Part shown: positions 4,868 through 57,210 of the stretch, piece by piece
How the letters are laid out: each line of letters opens with the position of its first letter
Numbering within the stretch: position 1 is the first letter of the stretch
Origin: Gammaproteobacteria bacterium
Lineage (GTDB): Bacteria; Pseudomonadota; Gammaproteobacteria; UBA4575
DNA length: 64,000 nucleotides
Assembly (NCBI GenBank): GCA_965221955.1
Contig: CBDCTA010000029.1
Coordinates: forward strand, 495,852-559,851
Direction of reading: 5' to 3'
Translations under genes and position numbers: made by a program
Notes under the pieces: model-generated
Told to the model about the DNA's origin: nothing
Database searches by the model: none
What the model saw: only the letters and a program-made list of their open reading frames with translations

Positions 4868-5010
4868 GGAAACTTTGATTTATACTGTCATGTTAATTTT
4901 TATGGTCGTTAAATTGATTACTTAAAATGCTCATGTATAGTTAATACACTCCGCTTTCTCGTAATCAATTTGCCTCATCTCAATCATTTCATTAGTAAAT
5001 CAAAGCTTCC
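4868..5010 (+). repeat. Intergenic repeat family, copy D (variant subfamily with tatggtcgttaaa start), upstream of nnr
   Basis: aggaaactttgatttatactgtc...tatggtcgttaaattgattacttaaaatgctcatgtatagttaatacactccgctttctcgtaatcaatttgcctcatctcaatcatttcattagtaaatcaaagcttcc. It ends 8 bp before the nnr ATG. Confidence 0.65.
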
Positions 5011-7068: not shown

Positions 7069-8508
7069 GTGCAGCAGCATTTTCATACTGGTAATCCGTT
7101 AAAAATACAGGCATCAAGATTAGCTCAAATTCTAATCTATTCCATTTCTGTGTTAGTAGGTTCAGTGTTTTTCATGCTGAGCACTTCCAGTTTTGCTGCC
7201 AACAATATTGCTCAAATCAGTGATCTTCGAATTGCCGATCGCAAGACAGAAACACGAATAGTTTTCGATTTAAACGCACCTGTAAAGCACAGTATTTTTG
7301 TACTAAAAAATCCAGACCGTGTAGTGTTGGATATCGGGCAATGCGATGCGAATGGCAAGCTCAAAGTGGGTCGCGTGGGTGGCACACTGGTTAAAGATTT
7401 GCGTTATGCACAAAAGACGAATGAAAAATTACGCGTCGTATTTGATTTAAATTCACCGGTATCCCCAAAAAGCTTTTTGTTGCCACCACAAAGTGGCAAG
7501 GCCTATCGATTAGTCATCGATCTGACTGCGACAACTGCGCTTACAACGGCTCCAAGTGAAACAAAAAAGCCGCACGCTGAACCTGTAGTAGCTATGAAAG
7601 ATGCACCTGTAAGCCGTCGTGATGTCGTCATCGCAATTGATGCAGGTCATGGAGGTAAAGACCCGGGTGCAATTGGTCGTGGAGGCACGCGTGAAAAAGA
7701 TATTGTGCTTTCTATTTCTAAAAGACTTAAAAATCTAATTGATAAAGAACCTGGAATGAAAGCAGTGTTAATTCGAGATCGTGATACTTTTGTTCCGTTA
7801 AGAGGAAGAATTAAAAAAGCCAGCAAGTTAAATGCTGATATTTTTCTTTCTATTCATGCGGATGCTGCAGTAAATCGTCGTGCTAAGGGTTCTTCGGTAT
7901 ATGTGCTATCGCAACATGGTGCAACCAGTGAGGCCGCGCGTATCTTAGCGCAACGCGAAAATGCGTCAGATAAAATTGGTGGGGTTAGCCTAGAAGACAA
8001 AGATGATGTGTTGAAATCGGTATTGGTCGATTTATCACAAACCGCGACCATTGATGCCAGTATCGACTTAGCAGAAGACATTCTTAACGAGCTCGCTAAA
8101 GTTGGAAATATATTACGAGACGAAGTAGAACAAGCGGGTTTTGCAGTGTTGAAATCGCCCGACATTCCATCTGTTTTAGTTGAGACTGCATTTATTTCAA
8201 ACCCTGCAGAAGAAAAGCGTTTAAAAACAACAACGCATCAACAAAAACTTGCTACCGCAATTCTTAAGGGTTTACGTCGTTATGCAAAAGATCATGCTCC
8301 TGCAAATGCAATTTTGGCGAGTGCTCCGACTCCTACACCACTGACTAGATACACCATAAAACGTGGCGATACCTTGTCTGGCATTGCGGTACGTTACAAA
8401 GTCAGCATTAGAGATTTACGCAAAGCGAATGGATTGCGTTCAGATGTACTTAAAGTAGGGCAAGTATTAACCATTCCAACATCACCTATGGTTACTGCTG
8501 GCGCGTAA
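7069..8508 (+). CDS. amiB: N-acetylmuramoyl-L-alanine amidase (AMIN domain + Amidase_3 + C-terminal LysM)
   Basis: 479 aa with a signal/TM N-terminus and an amidase_3 core (AIDAGHGGKDPGA, SIHADA). The C-terminal LysM reads YTIKRGDTLSGIAVRY. The name amiB is assigned by synteny (nnr-tsaE-amiB-mutL); it could equally be called amiC. Confidence 0.85.
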   Translation: MQQHFHTGNPLKIQASRLAQILIYSISVLVGSVFFMLSTSSFAANNIAQISDLRIADRKTETRIVFDLNAPVKHSIFVLKNPDRVVLDIGQCDANGKLKVGRVGGTLVKDLRYAQKTNEKLRVVFDLNSPVSPKSFLLPPQSGKAYRLVIDLTATTALTTAPSETKKPHAEPVVAMKDAPVSRRDVVIAIDAGHGGKDPGAIGRGGTREKDIVLSISKRLKNLIDKEPGMKAVLIRDRDTFVPLRGRIKKASKLNADIFLSIHADAAVNRRAKGSSVYVLSQHGATSEAARILAQRENASDKIGGVSLEDKDDVLKSVLVDLSQTATIDASIDLAEDILNELAKVGNILRDEVEQAGFAVLKSPDIPSVLVETAFISNPAEEKRLKTTTHQQKLATAILKGLRRYAKDHAPANAILASAPTPTPLTRYTIKRGDTLSGIAVRYKVSIRDLRKANGLRSDVLKVGQVLTIPTSPMVTAGA

Positions 8509-8538
8509 TTTAAAAAGTTTGATTTGAAGGGAGAGCTG

Positions 8539-8561
8539 CGCACGGATGCGCAATTATATTG
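8539..8561 (+). terminator. Possible weak terminator after amiB
   Basis: gcgca-cgga-tgcgc hairpin followed by aattatatt. The stem is only 5 bp. Confidence 0.3.
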
Positions 8562-8719: not shown

Positions 8720-8749
8720 AAAGTCAGCTTTCGGTCAATAGCAGACATT
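8720..8749. promoter_or_regulatory. 30-bp imperfect palindrome motif, copy 1 (aaagtcagc-tttcggtcaata-gcagacatt), 3' of the ECF sigma gene
   Basis: Shares arms (AATGTC/GACATT) and a central core with the copies at 9820 and 10779. In minus orientation it is followed by TTTTT, so it may act as the terminator of the sigma gene. Confidence 0.45.
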
Positions 8750-8763
8750 CAATGTATCACTTA

Positions 8764-9330
8764 CTAGCAACATTGATCCTTATTTAAGCTGTTTTTTTGC
8801 TTATACTCGATCACCTTTCCAAAACGATCCTTTTCAATTTCACAACAAGCTAGAAGTTCTTCTTTTAATTTAATGCGTCCTCGCTGTATACGTGACTTCA
8901 TTCCTGAAACCGAAATACCTATTCGCTCTGCGGCATCAGCTTGCTTAATTTCATTGAAGTCTGCTAATAGCAGAGCTTCCTTGTATTTCGGTTCCAGCTT
9001 GTTTGTAAGTGGTCTCAAACATTTGGCAAATTCACTATCTACGTTGTCAGGCATACTTTCATAATCAGCTATTGTAGTTTCAAGGTCATTAACATCATTT
9101 GATGCATTTATATTCGAGTGTTTTCGGTAATAGTCTGTAATTCTATTTTTGGCAACGATGTAAATCCATGCAAGTGGATTTTCAGCATCAGTTAACGCGC
9201 CCTCATTTTGTAGTACGCTTAAGAGAATGTCGTGTACTAAATCCTCAGATACATCGACATCCACTTTGGTACGAATATACTTGGTTAATAAGGATCGCAA
9301 CTCATCCCAAGTTGTATTTAATTCGGACAT
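8764..9330 (-). CDS. ECF (sigma-70 family, group 4) RNA polymerase sigma factor with a short Cys-pair C-terminal extension
   Basis: 188 aa. Region 2 reads DLVHDILLSV...WIYIVAKNRITDYYRK and the region 4 HTH reads ADFNEIKQADAAERIGISVSGMKSRIQRGR. The roughly 35 aa tail contains two CC pairs (LLACCEI...KDQCC). Confidence 0.8.
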   Translation of the reverse strand: MSELNTTWDELRSLLTKYIRTKVDVDVSEDLVHDILLSVLQNEGALTDAENPLAWIYIVAKNRITDYYRKHSNINASNDVNDLETTIADYESMPDNVDSEFAKCLRPLTNKLEPKYKEALLLADFNEIKQADAAERIGISVSGMKSRIQRGRIKLKEELLACCEIEKDRFGKVIEYKQKNSLNKDQCC

Positions 9331-9735
9331 TTATGCACAACACGCACTTGATTTTGAGGCATTGGCTTCATCGGGATTATCGTTGGTTATGGTGTACCAC
9401 TCCCAATTTAGTCCTTGCGGCTCGGTTGACCACACTTTGTCTTGTGTCGCAAAGCAGCATGTTGTTTGATCTTCAATTTTGTTTGCGATGTCATCACGTT
9501 CGAGTCGCTTTATTACCTCACCCAAATCATCATTTTGATCTACTTCCACTCCAAGATGATTGATTCTGTCATTCGCATTGGGATCTTCAATCAGAACCAG
9601 CTTCAATGGTGGATTATCAATCACAAAGTTTGCGTATCCCTTTCTTCGTTTATGTGGCTTAGTATCGAAGAGTTTTGTGTAATAGCTTACAGCTTCGTCA
9701 ATATTCCTTACGTTTAAGGCTAATTGTAGTCTCAT
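9331..9735 (-). CDS. VOC-family metalloenzyme, ArsI/CadI-like (candidate C-As lyase / metal-induced dioxygenase)
   Basis: 134 aa. The N-terminus MRLQLALNV..LFDTKP.KRRKGYANFVIDNPPLKLVLIE...NHLGVEV matches the ArsI/CadI signature. It has a vicinal Cys pair TTCCFATQDKVW and a C-terminal SACCA. Its stop abuts the sigma start codon (TAA-ATG). Confidence 0.6.
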   Translation of the reverse strand: MRLQLALNVRNIDEAVSYYTKLFDTKPHKRRKGYANFVIDNPPLKLVLIEDPNANDRINHLGVEVDQNDDLGEVIKRLERDDIANKIEDQTTCCFATQDKVWSTEPQGLNWEWYTITNDNPDEANASKSSACCA

Positions 9736-9819
9736 AGTACTTGCTCCAAATTCATTAATTGAGTTAGTAGTAAAAGACGTTTCAAAAAGGAAAAGGACGC
9801 AAAAATTAGTTAACTGGGG

Positions 9820-9849
9820 AATGCCCGCTTTGGGTCGTTAGCGGACATT
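9820..9849. promoter_or_regulatory. 30-bp imperfect palindrome motif, copy 2 (aatgcccgc-tttgggtcgtta-gcggacatt), upstream of the VOC-sigma operon
   Basis: It lies 85 bp upstream of the VOC gene start on the minus strand. Loop/core tttgggtcgtta is identical to copy 3. Confidence 0.5.
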
Positions 9850-9991
9850 TTAAGATTGTAAATTACTGATTCCAACACATTGCGTCCCATAATTTGTCTG
9901 CATTCGGCTCAGAAGTGTCCATTTGCTCGTATCTTGATTGAGTGCTTGTTAGCGACTGTATAACTTATTCAATAATACAATGAGCAATTTC

Positions 9992-10183
9992 TTAGCGTTC
10001 GATTCGAACCTCATCCATCTTGGACATCCTTCTTTTAAGTTCTTTCTCAAGGATATTTCTTGCATACGGTTTCATTCTCTTCCATTTCTCACATTCCTGT
10101 TCAGTTCGACCGCAACCCAGGCACCAGCCTTTGGGTCCTTTGAACTGACACACATCGATACAAGGACTTTTTTGCCGTTTCAC
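9992..10183 (-). CDS. DUF1289 family Cys-rich small protein (putative Fe-S/metal-binding)
   Basis: 63 aa. SPCIDVCQFKG..GWCLGCGRTEQECEKWKRM matches the DUF1289 (YdhL-like) pattern. It has a GTG start. Confidence 0.6.
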   Translation of the reverse strand: MKRQKSPCIDVCQFKGPKGWCLGCGRTEQECEKWKRMKPYARNILEKELKRRMSKMDEVRIER

Positions 10184-10229
10184 TGTTTATTGCACCATTT
10201 AAACGCTTGTGCTTTTTTATCAACTCAAG

Positions 10230-10706
10230 CTAGGTTTGCACTAGACTCAGTGCTTGTTCTATACCTTTTTCCAGCTGTCGAAGTCTGTTGAACTCTTCGA
10301 GTAGCCGTTGTTCCAAATTCTTAAAATTGAGAGGGAGCGTTCTTTTACAAATGCTGTATCCTTCACCGATCTGATAACCCTTCCAATTTTTTATACGATC
10401 GCTTTCTAGGGCTAGAAATTCTTGAATGAATTCCTGCTGTGAAGGGCAATCTTCTTCTGCATGCATACAGATTGGGAAGGCTTTTTGTTTAATTTCTCTG
10501 GCTTCTATGAAAGTTTCAAAATGTATTCCTCCTTGATTATGATTGTGCCAGTTATATTTGTAGAGTTGCAGATAAACACCGCGGTTGTAAATTTCCCAAC
10601 CACTATCAAACCAACTTGATTGATTAATTTTTCTTTCAAGGTTTCGAAAAACTTTTTTTATATCTTTCATGTTTAGGATATTTCTTAATTTAAAGTCGGT
10701 AGACAA
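10230..10706 (-). CDS. Hypothetical protein (158 aa), no recognisable domain
   Basis: Long ORF immediately upstream of the DUF1289 gene on the same strand (46 bp gap). No domain recognised by eye. Confidence 0.45.
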   Translation of the reverse strand: MSTDFKLRNILNMKDIKKVFRNLERKINQSSWFDSGWEIYNRGVYLQLYKYNWHNHNQGGIHFETFIEAREIKQKAFPICMHAEEDCPSQQEFIQEFLALESDRIKNWKGYQIGEGYSICKRTLPLNFKNLEQRLLEEFNRLRQLEKGIEQALSLVQT

Positions 10707-10778
10707 AAGCTAATAGTTACGAAACTTTGATGAAATATGGAAAAGTGCAAATACGAATCTTATTATCATAAATTAATT

Positions 10779-10808
10779 AATGTCTGCTTTGGGTCGTTAG
10801 CGGCCATT
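10779..10808. promoter_or_regulatory. 30-bp imperfect palindrome motif, copy 3 (aatgtctgc-tttgggtcgtta-gcggccatt), between sohB 3' end and the orphan ORF start
   Basis: Same core as copy 2. It overlaps the sohB stop region and lies about 70 bp upstream of the 10706 start. Confidence 0.5.
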
Positions 10809-11833
10809 CAATTAAACAATTTCGAGTCTTGTTCTTTTTGCCACCAAGAAAAAAATAATTTATCTATGGTCATCTGCATGGAGGTTGCAAAACGTTCGCT
10901 GATGGTTTTAGGCACTTCATATTTAATTTCATAAATGTCTGCCTCGTTGCTCGCGTTTAATAAGTAATCGTCACTGGTAATCAGTTCATCTACGAGTTTG
11001 AGCTCAAGTCCGCGTGTGGCAAGCCAATGTTCACCTGTAGCGACTTTATCGATTTCAAGAATAGGACGATTCTCTTTTACAAACTCTTTGAATAAGTCGT
11101 GAGTGTCTTCTAATTGCTCGTTAAAATGCGCACGATCTTCATCGGTGTTTTTACCAAACATGGTGACTGTGCGCTTGAGCTCACCTGCCTTCATCAATTC
11201 AAAGTCCACACCATGCTTATCTAGAAAGCGATTGAAGTTTGGTAATTGTGCTAGTACGCCAATGGAGCCAACGATGGCAAAAGGAGCAGCAATAATTTTG
11301 TCGGCTACGCATGCCATCATATAGCCACCGCTTGCGGCTACCTTGTCGACTGCAACAGTGAGTGGAATACCTTTTTGTTTTATGCGTAAAAGTTGCGAAG
11401 AAGCGAAACCATGTTCATGTACTAATCCGCCAGCATTTTCTAAACAAACCACCACCTCATCTGAGCTATCCGCTACTGATAAAATTGCTGTGATCTCTTT
11501 TCTGAGATGGCGTACAGCAGAAGCTTTTATGTTGCCTAAGAAATTAAGTACAAAAATACGTTTTTTATCTGTATCAGGATGTTTCTTTTCTTTTTTACGT
11601 TCTTTCTTATTTTCTTTTTTTACCTTTTTTAAATCTTTTTTAGATAACAAAGCAAAACGTAGTCGATCAGACATATTCTTATACTTTTTATTTAGATGAG
11701 TGATCTCAAAATGATCATGGCTACGTGCTTTTTTCGAAAAGGAAAATGCCAGCATCATAAGTACCCAAATAAAAATCAGGGCGGTGATTGCCTTGGCAAA
11801 AAATAATCCGTATTCGGTTAAAAATTCGATCAT
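10808..11833 (-). CDS. sohB: Inner-membrane protease SohB (peptidase S49 family)
   Basis: 341 aa. N-terminal TM segment, then a Lys-rich linker and an S49/ClpP-fold region (GGLVHEHG, ASGGYMMAC). Confidence 0.8.
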   Translation of the reverse strand: MIEFLTEYGLFFAKAITALIFIWVLMMLAFSFSKKARSHDHFEITHLNKKYKNMSDRLRFALLSKKDLKKVKKENKKERKKEKKHPDTDKKRIFVLNFLGNIKASAVRHLRKEITAILSVADSSDEVVVCLENAGGLVHEHGFASSQLLRIKQKGIPLTVAVDKVAASGGYMMACVADKIIAAPFAIVGSIGVLAQLPNFNRFLDKHGVDFELMKAGELKRTVTMFGKNTDEDRAHFNEQLEDTHDLFKEFVKENRPILEIDKVATGEHWLATRGLELKLVDELITSDDYLLNASNEADIYEIKYEVPKTISERFATSMQMTIDKLFFSWWQKEQDSKLFN

Positions 11834-14975: not shown

Positions 14976-15099
14976 AAGCCCCTGAATTTGTTTTCTGCTT
15001 CGTTAAAAAAATGATCTCAATAGTGCTCATGTATTAGCATATACACTTCGCTTATTTCGACATTTTTTTGCCTCACATAAAATCAAATCAGAGCCTTCT
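14976..15099 (+). repeat. Intergenic repeat family, copy E, between mutL and miaA
   Basis: aagcccctgaatttgttttctg-cttcgttaaaaaaatgatctcaatagtgctcatgtattagcatatacacttcgcttatttcgacatttttttgcctcacataaaatcaaatcagagccttc. It ends 10 bp before the miaA GTG. Confidence 0.7.
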
Positions 15100-52497: not shown

Positions 52498-52626
52498 AAG
52501 AAGTCCTGATTTAAATTGATACTTCGTTAAAAATTATTCTCAATATCGTTCGTGTATGTATTAATACACGTCACTCATTTCGAAAATTTTTGTCTCGTCT
52601 CAAACTAAATCAAAACTTCTTTAGGT
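52498..52626 (+). repeat. Intergenic repeat family, copy F, between secF and suhB 3' ends
   Basis: aagaagtcctgatttaaattgata-cttcgttaaaaattattctcaatatcgttcgtgtatgtattaatacacgtcactcatttcgaaaatttttgtctcgtctcaaactaaatcaaaacttcttt. It contains a perfect 7-bp inverted repeat, cgtgtat/atacacg. Confidence 0.7.
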
Positions 52627-57072: not shown

Positions 57073-57210
57073 GGAAACTTTGAATTATTCTGCCTTAGTT
57101 TAATTGTTATGGTCGTTAAAAAATAATCACAAATCGTTCATGTATATTTAATACACATCACTCATTTCGATATTTTTTGCCTCGTCTCAACCGCTTCACT
57201 AATAAATCAA
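57072..57210 (+). repeat. Intergenic repeat family, copy G (variant subfamily, like copy D), between iscA and hscB
   Basis: aggaaactttgaattattctgcc...tatggtcgttaaaaaataatcacaaatcgttcatgtatatttaatacacatcactcatttcgatattttttgcctcgtctcaaccgcttcactaataaatcaaagttccttc. Confidence 0.7.

Follow-up and report, generated by a model that had tools for sequence, protein, structure and literature searches.

What do three copies of a 30-bp imperfect palindrome do around a gene pair that encodes a VOC/glyoxalase-family protein and an ECF-type sigma factor: do they control these genes, shape the ends of their transcripts, or mark places where the DNA itself has been joined? The question arises from a stretch of DNA of 64,000 nucleotides, referred to below as the window, which is closest to two uncultured Gammaproteobacteria of low GC content (GCA_012263305.1 and GCA_014075255.1). 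Our analysis leads to an answer to which we give a probability of about one half: the repeats are widespread REP-like DNA joints, at which small accessory modules insert or are exchanged. The spread of small accessory genes (toxin-antitoxin, defence and detoxification genes) outside integrons and transposons is poorly understood, and, if this reading is true, a 28-bp joint common to distant Proteobacteria would offer a testable handle on the movement of modules.

Palindrome copies in the sohB–amiC island

Read along the minus strand, the order of the elements is sohB, copy m3, a gene for a protein of about 145 aa, a DUF1289 gene, a decayed copy, copy m2, a candidate promoter, the VOC gene, the sigma gene, copy m1, and amiC. 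The island is flanked by two conserved core genes, sohB (peptidase S49; 10808–11833, minus strand) and an amiC-like gene for an N-acetylmuramoyl-L-alanine amidase (7069–8508, plus strand). Copy m3 (10779–10808, minus strand) has the structure ATGGCCGC-TAACGACCCAAA-GCAGACAT, belongs to the GACCC loop type, and stands directly after the stop codon of sohB. Copy m2 (9820–9849, minus strand; ATGTCCGC-TAACGACCCAAA-GCGGGCAT) precedes the VOC start codon by 85 nt, and m1 (8720–8749, minus strand; ATGTCTGC-TATTGACCGAAA-GCTGACTT) starts 15 nt past the sigma stop codon. On the plus strand, m1, m2, and m3 read AAAGTCAGCTTTCGGTCAATAGCAGACATT, AATGCCCGCTTTGGGTCGTTAGCGGACATT, and AATGTCTGCTTTGGGTCGTTAGCGGCCATT, respectively. 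The arms of m1 and m3 contain two mismatches each. A preliminary description of the window had placed the three copies at these coordinates and at these positions relative to the sigma, VOC, and sohB genes; the sequence, the pattern search, and the profile HMM all confirmed the coordinates, and the gene distances agreed. It had ascribed an AATGTC/GACATT half-site to every copy, but m1 reads AAAGTC.

Within the window, the copies are confined to the island. A degenerate 30-mer pattern gave exactly three matches in the window, where shuffled sequences led us to expect 0.00, and a 16-nt core with ≤ 3 mismatches allowed gave four matches against 0.43 expected. A repeat search of the window grouped m1–m3 as a single family. 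Furthermore, a profile HMM trained on 236 copies, all from other genomes, detected m1 (E = 8e-8), m2 (E = 7e-10), and m3 (E = 3e-8) as the only copies in the 64 kb, with the next match at E = 1.6; that a profile of foreign copies picks only these three supports the reading as joints. Local alignment revealed a decayed fourth copy of the GGCCG loop type at 9894–9922 (minus strand; ATGGACACTTCTGAGCCGAATGCAGACAA), with a score of 13 that was reached in 0 of 500 shuffles (mean, 7.2; maximum, 11). The earlier statement that the motif occurs nowhere else in the window is thus correct for intact copies only. All four copies, the decayed one included, fall within one 2.3-kb island, and none was found in the remaining 61 kb. 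The three intact copies are spaced at 959–1100 nt with genes between them, so a CRISPR-like array was rejected.

The island consists of two small gene modules. The first gene of module 1 (10230–10706, minus strand), which had been described as an orphan, is in fact a member of a family of proteins of about 145 aa that is conserved at 72–91% identity across many taxa; given this family length, translation probably starts some 12 codons into the ORF. The second gene of module 1 is a DUF1289 gene (9992–10183, minus strand; PF06945, E = 2e-14), and the pairing of the two genes recurs in Enterovibrio. Module 2 comprises the VOC/glyoxalase-family gene (9331–9735, minus strand) followed by the ECF-type sigma-70 family gene (8764–9330, minus strand). 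The outer junctions of the island are formed by m3 towards sohB and by m1 towards amiC. The decayed copy, 69 nt past the DUF1289 stop codon and 45 nt short of m2, is probably the distal end of module 1. On the proposed mechanism, the two modules would have been inserted between sohB and amiC, with the copies serving as junction sites.

A proteobacterial superfamily and its possible regulatory roles

The profile HMM identified m1–m3 as members of a superfamily of the form ATGTCCGC-N12/13-GCGGACAT (28–30 bp). A genome scan located it at no fewer than 118 loci in Alpha-, Beta-, and Gammaproteobacteria, and 738 matches were counted in 1.04 Mb of loci that had been picked for carrying the motif. 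Among complete E. coli genomes, 2485 of 5426 contained the variant with the GGCAC loop, which was also found in 1123 plasmid records. Near-identical 28-mers occurred across genomes of 34% to 68% GC, and also in E. coli prophages and in plasmids. The asymmetric cores, 6–7 bp in length, fall into discrete types (GACCC, GGCCG, GGCAC, GAGCGA, and CCCCC), and in Alphaproteobacteria the hairpins form tandem clusters with differing loops. One array (locus L086) is bordered by rpoD and tRNA-Met; an alternation of GACCC and GGCCG loops along it was considered and discarded, the pattern being irregular. Almost all copies (142 of 145) were intergenic, and they tended to follow stop codons, often immediately. 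Outside the motif, only A at −1 and T at +1 were conserved, which extends the palindrome. This breadth across proteobacterial classes, plasmids, and E. coli counts in favour of the reading as joints.

The motif was not found in Rfam 15 or, as a DNA or peptide string, among about 8 million full-text papers, apart from chance primer matches, and a concept search of the literature returned nothing relevant on such a motif. In its gene sense the motif starts with ATG, the alphaproteobacterial consensus being ATG TCC GCT AAT GAC CCA AAG CGG ACA T (MSANDPKRT...), and m2 translates as MSANDPKRA. A real mini-ORF was rejected: the window copies yield only 10–13 residues and have no Shine-Dalgarno sequence, all codon positions are conserved from 34% to 68% GC, and the changes in the arms have no synonymous bias.

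The preliminary description had favoured an operator for the sigma factor or for a local repressor. In the version that we considered, the palindrome would bind the ECF sigma holoenzyme or a regulator of the island. Palindromic arms would suit a dimeric protein, a copy is found 84–85 nt before the VOC start in the window and in two other loci (L130 and L213), and m2 ends about 19 nt before the −35 element of a candidate promoter, a position that an activator could use. This candidate, an ECF-type promoter of the VOC-sigma operon, is located at 9776–9801 (minus strand; TGCGTCCTTTTCCTTTTTGAAACGTC) and is separate from the palindrome. Its pattern, TGCGTC-N15-ACGTC, is conserved in six orthologous loci, has its sole match in the window here against 0.04 expected, and is absent near m1 and m3. 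Judged from its sequence, it is a better candidate for a sigma-dependent promoter than the palindrome, which does not resemble an ECF −35/−10 pair. Moreover, the upstream copy has decayed in two loci (L214 and L215) in which the promoter-like element is intact. The same palindrome stands at hundreds of unrelated loci and taxa, including genomes and elements without this sigma factor, and 150 flanking ORFs matched 132 different Pfam families; given this diversity, nothing ties the motif specifically to the ECF sigma factor. The wide distribution and the separate conserved element led us to reject a sigma operator or promoter, and we regard any local operator as extremely improbable. The preliminary description had named as the opposing case a generic REP-like element at unrelated loci without positional preference. 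The motif is indeed generic across loci and genomes, but its positional preference is strong.

A role in RNA would take the form of a transcribed 3′ hairpin that stabilises mRNA, or that pauses or terminates transcription, as has been proposed for many REPs. The orientation of the motif agrees with this, as it matches that of the upstream gene in 48 cases against 11 between co-directional genes, and in 30 against 6 when copies within 30 nt of a same-strand stop codon were counted in low-GC gammaproteobacterial arrays; the latter bias, which an RNA or 3′-end role also predicts, weighs to that extent against the joint reading. An orientation set by replication, as in IS200/IS605 elements, was excluded, since no GC-skew bias remained after gene direction had been accounted for, and this independence from skew also fits an RNA role. 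G-U-compatible variants were somewhat commoner in the gene sense (47 vs. 30), and m2 folds better in that sense (−13.5 kcal/mol, z = −4.7) than in the opposite one (−11.6 kcal/mol). However, m2 is the only stable copy; the hairpins of m1 (−5.2 kcal/mol, z = −1.6) and m3 (−3.3 kcal/mol, z = −0.08) are weak and no better than those of shuffled sequences. A terminator scan called none of the window copies, and a U tract is lacking as a rule, a run of T following m1 only. The suggestion that m1 doubles as the sigma terminator is weak, given its stem energy and the result of the scan. Copy m2 lies upstream of the candidate VOC-sigma promoter, and the copies that follow groEL and an EF-hand gene in L126 and L130 come downstream of canonical terminators. 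Across copies, the stem had almost no covariation and variation in the arms was almost never compensatory, so that the sequence is kept rather than the pairing. Rfam models gave only tRNAs at the gathering score, and nothing overlapped the window copies at E ≤ 10. The position of m2 and of the copies past terminators, the poor folding of m1 and m3, and the non-compensatory changes argue for a role in DNA rather than in RNA, and we consider the RNA role unlikely.

Motif copies at the edges of variable modules

The comparison of related loci bears on the reading as joints. The VOC-sigma pair was found in seven different neighbourhoods, in all of which the motif, intact or decayed, was present on at least one side. 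It was present on both sides in five of the seven, about 84 nt before the VOC start and 10–20 nt past the sigma stop; L126 had no downstream copy, and the contig of L132 ends before the upstream region. Wherever the flanks could be compared between neighbourhoods, no similarity extended beyond the edges of the motif. Copies orthologous to m2 lie equally far from VOC in L130 and L213, and m1 is orthologous to the copy of the TATTGGCCG type that follows the sigma gene in L132, L213, L214, and L215. The earlier observation that transcription units of the island are framed by copies is right, and in other genomes the VOC-sigma pair is likewise framed by orthologous copies. Presence and absence of modules point the same way. 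In a relative, L133, only 76 nt separate sohB from a convergent amiC; this locus has one degenerate copy and lacks the island. Downstream of groEL, L126 contains two more genes and two more copies than L130. On the other hand, the VOC-sigma neighbourhoods have diverged to 55–85% protein identity, and ordinary long-term rearrangement at operon boundaries could consequently explain their differences.

The lambdoid prophages of E. coli provide a second case. Here, a slot between hokD and DUF977 holds nine different cargos, several of which resemble anti-phage defence genes (with RelA/SpoT domains, FRG domains, and others). Eight of the nine lie between a left and a right motif, and the ninth (QueH) has the right-hand copy only. 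The outer halves of the motifs are constant together with the backbone, and the inner halves are variable. Cargo genes occur in either orientation relative to the fixed orientations of the motifs, which is a further argument against a transcript-bound role. An intact empty site was not recovered for this slot, where the matches inspected proved to be other cargos. Complementarity of the inner arms of one cargo, as expected from a one-site circle, was present in four of five cargos but failed in three more, and was dropped as a general rule; that it held only in some cases counts against the joint reading. On plasmids, whose hosts include Klebsiella, Enterobacter, and Pantoea, the motif brackets vapBC, CsaA-EamA-TetR, and LysE modules on both sides; it also marks the left edge of a DUF1778-GNAT module and is found at, or close to, fosA.

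In these cases, motif copies fall where segments that vary among relatives begin or end. We infer that recombination takes place at the motif itself. Its arms may be the target of a trans-acting enzyme or may provide a brief stretch of homology, and the polarity would come from the asymmetric loop. Several results do not sit easily with this model. No recombinase, RAYT, or other enzyme was found beside the motif among the flanking ORFs, and we saw neither a circular intermediate nor any transposition event that was recent and near-identical. A module usually carries unlike loop types at its ends, which is at odds with integration of a one-site circle in a single crossover if the enzyme requires identical cores. 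Gene calls in the high-GC loci were crude.

If joints are indeed what the repeats are, hot spots and module boundaries could be predicted from sequence alone, and the motif could help in finding the enzyme. It is present in tractable systems such as E. coli prophages and Klebsiella plasmids. It could also be used to flag spurious small ORFs of the MSANDPKRT... type. Should it be merely a passive REP, it would still represent a very widely distributed REP-like family.

Comparison with REPs, integrons, and other joints

IS110-family transposases are known to target REPs, and transposases of this family adjoin motif halves in L017 and L058. This is one of the points in favour of a passive REP-type repeat, that is, a small selfish or decaying hairpin that a transposase spreads, or once spread, into non-essential intergenic DNA, for the most part right behind stop codons, and that is carried along with the neighbouring operon. 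Module edges would then match the motif only because both fall between transcription units. The many decayed copies agree with this explanation, as do the mostly non-compensatory variation expected for copies of a master sequence, the BIME-like tandem clusters of Alphaproteobacteria, and the L132 copy, whose loop has received about 92 nt of extra DNA with a 3-bp duplication. Like REPs and BIMEs, the motif is a short imperfect palindrome (REPs measure 20–40 bp), is extragenic, stands mostly between unidirectional or convergent genes, and is often less than 20 nt from a stop codon or overlaps it (PMC3733652). Discrete loop variants, tandem clusters in some genomes, and a role as an IS target are further likenesses. 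Di Nocera et al. (2013) described REP superfamilies with GTAG and CGTC tags, the latter having stems of 8–9 bp, loops of 4–5 nt, a CCA tail, and the tag variants TGTC and CCTC (PMC3733652). In contrast, our motif lacks an unpaired GTAG or CGTC tag, its TGTC falls inside a paired arm, and its loop is long (12–13 nt) with a conserved asymmetric sequence. REPs are dispersed at high copy number, whereas the copies in the window are few and are clustered in an island that is missing from L133. Near-identity across proteobacterial classes, plasmids, and prophages, at 34% to 68% GC, is unusual for lineage-specific REPs, and a further difference is that copies consistently stand where variable gene modules end. 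A tblastn search of the window and the fetched loci with the E. coli RayT gave no match, though its sensitivity was low; at most one Y1_Tnp match was found among the 150 flanking ORFs, which is no enrichment; and two IS110 transposases and a P4-type integrase had no tblastn matches in the window. Considering also the prophage slot, in which the outer motif halves belong to a fixed backbone while the cargo changes, we regard a passive REP as possible but doubtful.

Typical cargo of the motif (VOC/glyoxalase, GNAT, and HIT proteins, toxin-antitoxin pairs, and DUFs) resembles that of integron cassettes. As with attC sites and cassette arrays, CALINs included, imperfect palindromes follow or overlap the stop codons of small, co-oriented units that are often promoterless or single-gene, and the number of sites equalled that of cassettes plus one in the comparisons made. 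However, the motif is much shorter than attC (28–30 bp vs. 55–141 bp) and has no RYYYAAC/GTTRRRY core sites at its ends, and on these grounds attC and integrons were rejected. Its sequence, not just its structure, is conserved, it is abundant in Alphaproteobacteria, its modules can have a promoter of their own and lie in either direction, and no IntI was seen in 8-kb blocks around the arrays. A tentative reading, which we think rather unlikely, is that the palindromes are the sites of an undescribed cassette-exchange system, integron-like in outcome but unrelated to integrons. The 11-bp arms, which are conserved, would be recognised by a recombinase that acts in trans and is possibly encoded by the host; the five types of core would act as compatibility classes, and a module with unlike cores at its ends would stay in place but could still be swapped. 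The range of this system would span Proteobacteria and take in hot spots on chromosomes, downstream of sohB, groEL, and rpoD-tRNA, as well as the enterobacterial plasmids and the prophage slot described above.

A host-encoded enzyme, as in Xer recombination, would explain the absence of a linked recombinase. Like the pdif sites of Acinetobacter plasmids, the motif spans 28 bp with 11-bp inverted arms around a centre of 6–7 bp (ATGTCCGCTWW-core-WWAGCGGACAT), and it brackets accessory modules on plasmids, toxin-antitoxin pairs among them. Nevertheless, the arms differ in sequence from those of dif and pdif; compared by eye, ATGTCCGCTWW had no resemblance to the dif consensus. The sites are in direct rather than alternating orientation, and the centres at either end of a module usually differ from each other. 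That Xer takes part is no more than conjecture.

The mosaic joints of lambdoid phages contain conserved boundary or "linker" sequences that are used by relaxed homologous recombination (Red or RecT-type). In E. coli prophages, the motif likewise lies as a short conserved patch to the left and right of a variable slot, with the homology between variants ending in or at the patch. It differs from such linkers in that the same patch is also present in the chromosomes and plasmids of distant bacteria, and in being palindromic with a conserved loop, features that simple homology patches do not require.

Copies in the window and the wider family

The three 30-nt palindromes match exactly the coordinates of the preliminary description, and all are best read on the minus strand, which is also that of the genes in the island between sohB and amiC: copy 1 at 8720-8749 (ATGTCTGC-TATTGACCGAAA-GCTGACTT), copy 2 at 9820-9849 (ATGTCCGC-TAACGACCCAAA-GCGGGCAT), and copy 3 at 10779-10808 (ATGGCCGC-TAACGACCCAAA-GCAGACAT). 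The gene assignments also stand, with an amiC-like amidase gene on the plus strand and the ECF sigma, VOC, DUF1289, 158-codon, and sohB ORFs on the minus strand. A degenerate 30-mer matched only these three copies in the window (0.00 expected), and the 16-nt core with ≤ 3 mismatches matched four times (0.43 expected). Because a profile HMM trained on 236 copies, all from outside the window, recovered exactly copies 1-3, we regard them as bona fide members of one family. The motif had been described as occurring nowhere else in the window; the HMM found nothing more in the 64 kb, but a decayed fourth copy was detected at 9894-9922 (minus strand), between the DUF1289 gene and copy 2 (score 13, shuffle maximum 11). 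The palindrome is sparse in this genome and restricted to the island. When the flanks of copies 1-3 were compared, no similarity was shared beyond the 30 nt.

In a scan of one genome per species, the motif occurred at ≥ 118 loci, and the counts per taxon are lower bounds, with some MAG labels doubtful (e.g., a "Mycobacterium" bin of 40% GC). Among the loci listed, most were from Alphaproteobacteria (Pseudolabrys, Xanthobacteraceae, and Hyphomicrobiales; consensus ATGTCCGCTAATGACCCAAAGCGGACAT), and the listed loci from Beta- and Gammaproteobacteria spanned 34% to 68% GC. A search with the arms only defined a superfamily, ATGTCCGC-N12/13-GCGGACAT, with 738 matches in 1.04 Mb of fetched loci, within which the loop families (GACCC, GGCAC, CCCCC, and GGCCG) are discrete. 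Of 5426 complete E. coli genomes, 2485 carry the GGCAC variant, as do 1123 PLSDB plasmids (602 from Klebsiella, 176 from Enterobacter, and 124 from Pantoea). When viral contigs were scanned for the exact pattern, three true copies were found, in DNA of 54-57% GC. Four near-identical phage contigs (L001, L004, L006, and L007) carried the pattern in apparent coding sequence (GACGCTTTCGGTCGATAGCAAGCATT) without palindromic arms; these chance matches were left out of every count. No Rfam family matched the motif, and a full-text literature search found neither its sequence nor its peptide read-outs. Peptides annotated as, for example, MSANDPKRT or MSAFGGKADI may stem from it.

The VOC-sigma module and its neighbourhoods

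Sigma-factor homologues (55-84% identity) always adjoin a VOC gene, yet they lie in seven different neighbourhoods, a comparison that spans deep divergence: between the sohB array and amiC in the window, after groEL in L126 and L130 (L-numbers denote loci fetched from other genomes), before an aspartic protease gene in L132, within an array of small ORFs in L213, after a YkuD gene in L214, and in a further context in L215. Each of the seven has an intact or decayed motif next to the module, and five have one at each end of it. The upstream copy is of the GACCC type in the window, L130, and L213, where 84-85 nt separate its end from the VOC start codon; in L214 and L215 it has decayed, in L126 a GGCCG-type copy with 65 extra nt takes its place, and the L132 contig stops short of this stretch. 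The sigma stop codon is followed 10-20 nt downstream by a TATTGGCCG-type copy in the window, L132, L213, L214, and L215; L130 has a remnant and L126 has none. Where the neighbourhoods were compared, their flanks had no similarity past the motif edges. In the closest relative for which data exist (86% identity in SohB), sohB and amiC are convergent and 76 nt apart, with one degenerate copy and no island, and in a second relative (82%), other content and two copies lie between them. Compared with L130, L126 carries two additional genes behind groEL, encoding a VOC and an EF-hand protein, and two additional copies. Just past the sigma gene of L132 (870-1000), an insertion of ~92 nt with a 3-bp duplication (CGA) splits the loop of the downstream palindrome, and the loop itself is therefore targeted by a small inserted element.

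The palindrome had been proposed as an operator of the sigma factor or of a repressor. It does adjoin this module, but its neighbours elsewhere are unrelated: the 150 ORFs next to copies in various genomes matched 132 different Pfam families, and the only recurrent mobile-element family was an IS110-type transposase, found twice. Furthermore, a separate element, TGCGTC-N15-ACGTC, is common to six orthologous loci upstream of VOC. In the window it is represented by TGCGTCCTTTTCCTTTTTGAAACGTC at 9776-9801 (minus strand), the sole match in 64 kb, with CGTC in both boxes, which is unusual; in L214 and L215 it is intact where the adjoining palindrome has decayed. The motif has no tie to the sigma factor, and a role as a local operator is very improbable. 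The 9776-9801 element is the better candidate for an autoregulated ECF promoter.

Other features of the region were also recorded. The minus-strand ORF at 10230-10706, described as an orphan, has relatives of ~145 amino acids (72-91% identical) in many taxa, including Vibrionaceae, Arenicella, Oceanospirillaceae, and bins labelled Bacteroidota and Nitrospinota; its annotated start is probably too far upstream. In Enterovibrio, the relative is again followed by DUF1289, and the two form a conserved two-gene unit. A second, unrelated repeat family of ~45-110 nt combines a GTGTAT-N6-ATACAC palindrome with the blocks TTCGTTAAAAA, GCCTCGTCTCAA, and AAATCAAAACTTCC. Its six plus-strand copies are at 916-1006, 2124-2214, 4941-4983, 15006-15096, 52529-52619, and 57148-57190, and five lie 10-80 nt upstream of a plus-strand gene; the next ORF called after the 52529-52619 copy is on the minus strand. 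This family looks like a shared promoter or leader, or another intergenic element. A further family of very short hairpins (NNACATCCATGTNN / GCGCACGGATGCGC) recurs in intergenic DNA of the lineage, close to the 28-bp palindromes (window 8537-8552; L126 ~9500; L130 ~1050; L132 ~940).

Cargo, orientation, and the level of action

In two other low-GC Gammaproteobacteria, a copy lies a few nucleotides past the stop codon in almost every gap of an array of small co-oriented genes (HIT, VOC, DUF3293, GNAT, HMA, and SNase families; many others had no Pfam match). In one of these arrays, L086 (1-8000; Gammaproteobacteria MAG CBDEUS010000002.1), more than 12 small, mostly unannotatable genes directly follow rpoD and tRNA-Met, with a palindrome after almost every transcription unit and no integrase within the 8 kb examined. 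A slot flanked by hokD and the DUF977 gene in lambdoid prophages of E. coli holds nine different cargos (L221, L223-L236): two hypothetical genes, an FRG-domain protein, a RelA/SpoT-domain protein, DUF1989 with LysE, DUF4209, HAD and NUDIX hydrolases, another hypothetical gene, a remnant of ~250 nt, and QueH. Several look like anti-phage defence genes; methyltransferase and hydrolase genes also occur in the slot. Two motif copies bracket eight of the nine cargos, QueH having the right-hand copy only. The left copy is TAGTCCGC-tttgagcga-nnn-GCrGAnnT and the right copy AyGTCyGC-tnnt-ggcacaaa-GCGGACAA; their outer halves are constant along with the phage backbone, their inner halves are variable, and the cargo lies in either orientation. 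On plasmids, motif copies bracket vapBC (Citrobacter), CsaA-EamA-TetR (Klebsiella), and LysE (Pantoea), one copy lies near fosA on a Pantoea plasmid, and inter-plasmid homology of a DUF1778-GNAT toxin-antitoxin module starts at the motif.

By crude ORF calling, heuristic in high-GC loci, 142 of 145 copies were intergenic, and where the flanking genes are co-directional, the strand that reads ATGTCCGC-TAAYGACCC was the gene strand in 48 cases and the opposite strand in 11. The low-GC gammaproteobacterial loci had 71 HMM matches in 267 kb; a same-strand ORF ended ≤ 30 nt upstream of 30 copies, compared with 6 in the opposite orientation. Gene direction, not GC skew, predicts the orientation of a copy. 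In the gammaproteobacterial arrays, this coupling to gene direction is the main argument for a hairpin acting at mRNA 3' ends, or for a polar insertion mechanism. A stable hairpin was predicted for copy 2 only (-13.5 kcal/mol, z = -4.7), and copies 1 and 3 showed no advantage in folding over shuffled sequence. Most of the variation in the arms is non-compensatory, so that sequence rather than base pairing is inherited or selected. Copy 2 sits upstream of the promoter-like element, outside the adjoining transcription unit, and the copies after groEL (L126 and L130) and after the EF-hand gene (L126) come behind canonical terminators. Because of these placements, the weak folding, the lack of covariation, and the orientation-independent E. 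coli cargo, a role at the DNA level is favoured, and the mRNA hairpin is unlikely.

Possible mechanism and known systems

We consider, with a probability of about 0.5, that the motif serves as a joint for module insertion or exchange. One possible reading of its geometry is an asymmetric core of 6-7 bp between inverted arms of 11 bp, which is the layout of tyrosine-recombinase core sites, and the E. coli junctions are consistent with a crossover that falls between the A/T triplet and this core. However, module ends usually carry two different cores, no recombination enzyme was found among the 150 flanking ORFs or by tblastn of the window with transposase and integrase queries, no empty site was found for the E. 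coli prophage slot, and the inner arms of one cargo in that slot had no consistent complementarity. For these reasons, recombination through short homology at a conserved patch (RecA, Red, or RecT type) is as likely as a dedicated recombinase.

IS110-family transposase genes adjoin palindrome half-copies in L017 (2400-3850) and L058 (1800-3030; e.g., ...GGGCACTAAAGCGGACAT beside the L058 element), which suggests that such elements insert into the motif loop. IS110/IS1111 relatives insert into REP and attC sites.

Among known systems, we file the motif with REP-like palindromes or recombination joints. It resembles REP elements in size, extragenic position, and nearness to stop codons (PMC3733652), and a passive repeat of this type is a possible but distinctly weaker reading than a joint between modules; unlike REP elements, the motif has no GTAG or CGTC tag, and its loop is long and conserved. 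No link to a RAYT was found among the 150 flanking ORFs or by tblastn with E. coli RayT. The array layout and the cargo are similar to those of integron cassettes, but the motif fails the attC definition. Finally, with pdif modules it shares its size and its place on both sides of plasmid modules, and it differs from them in sequence and orientation.
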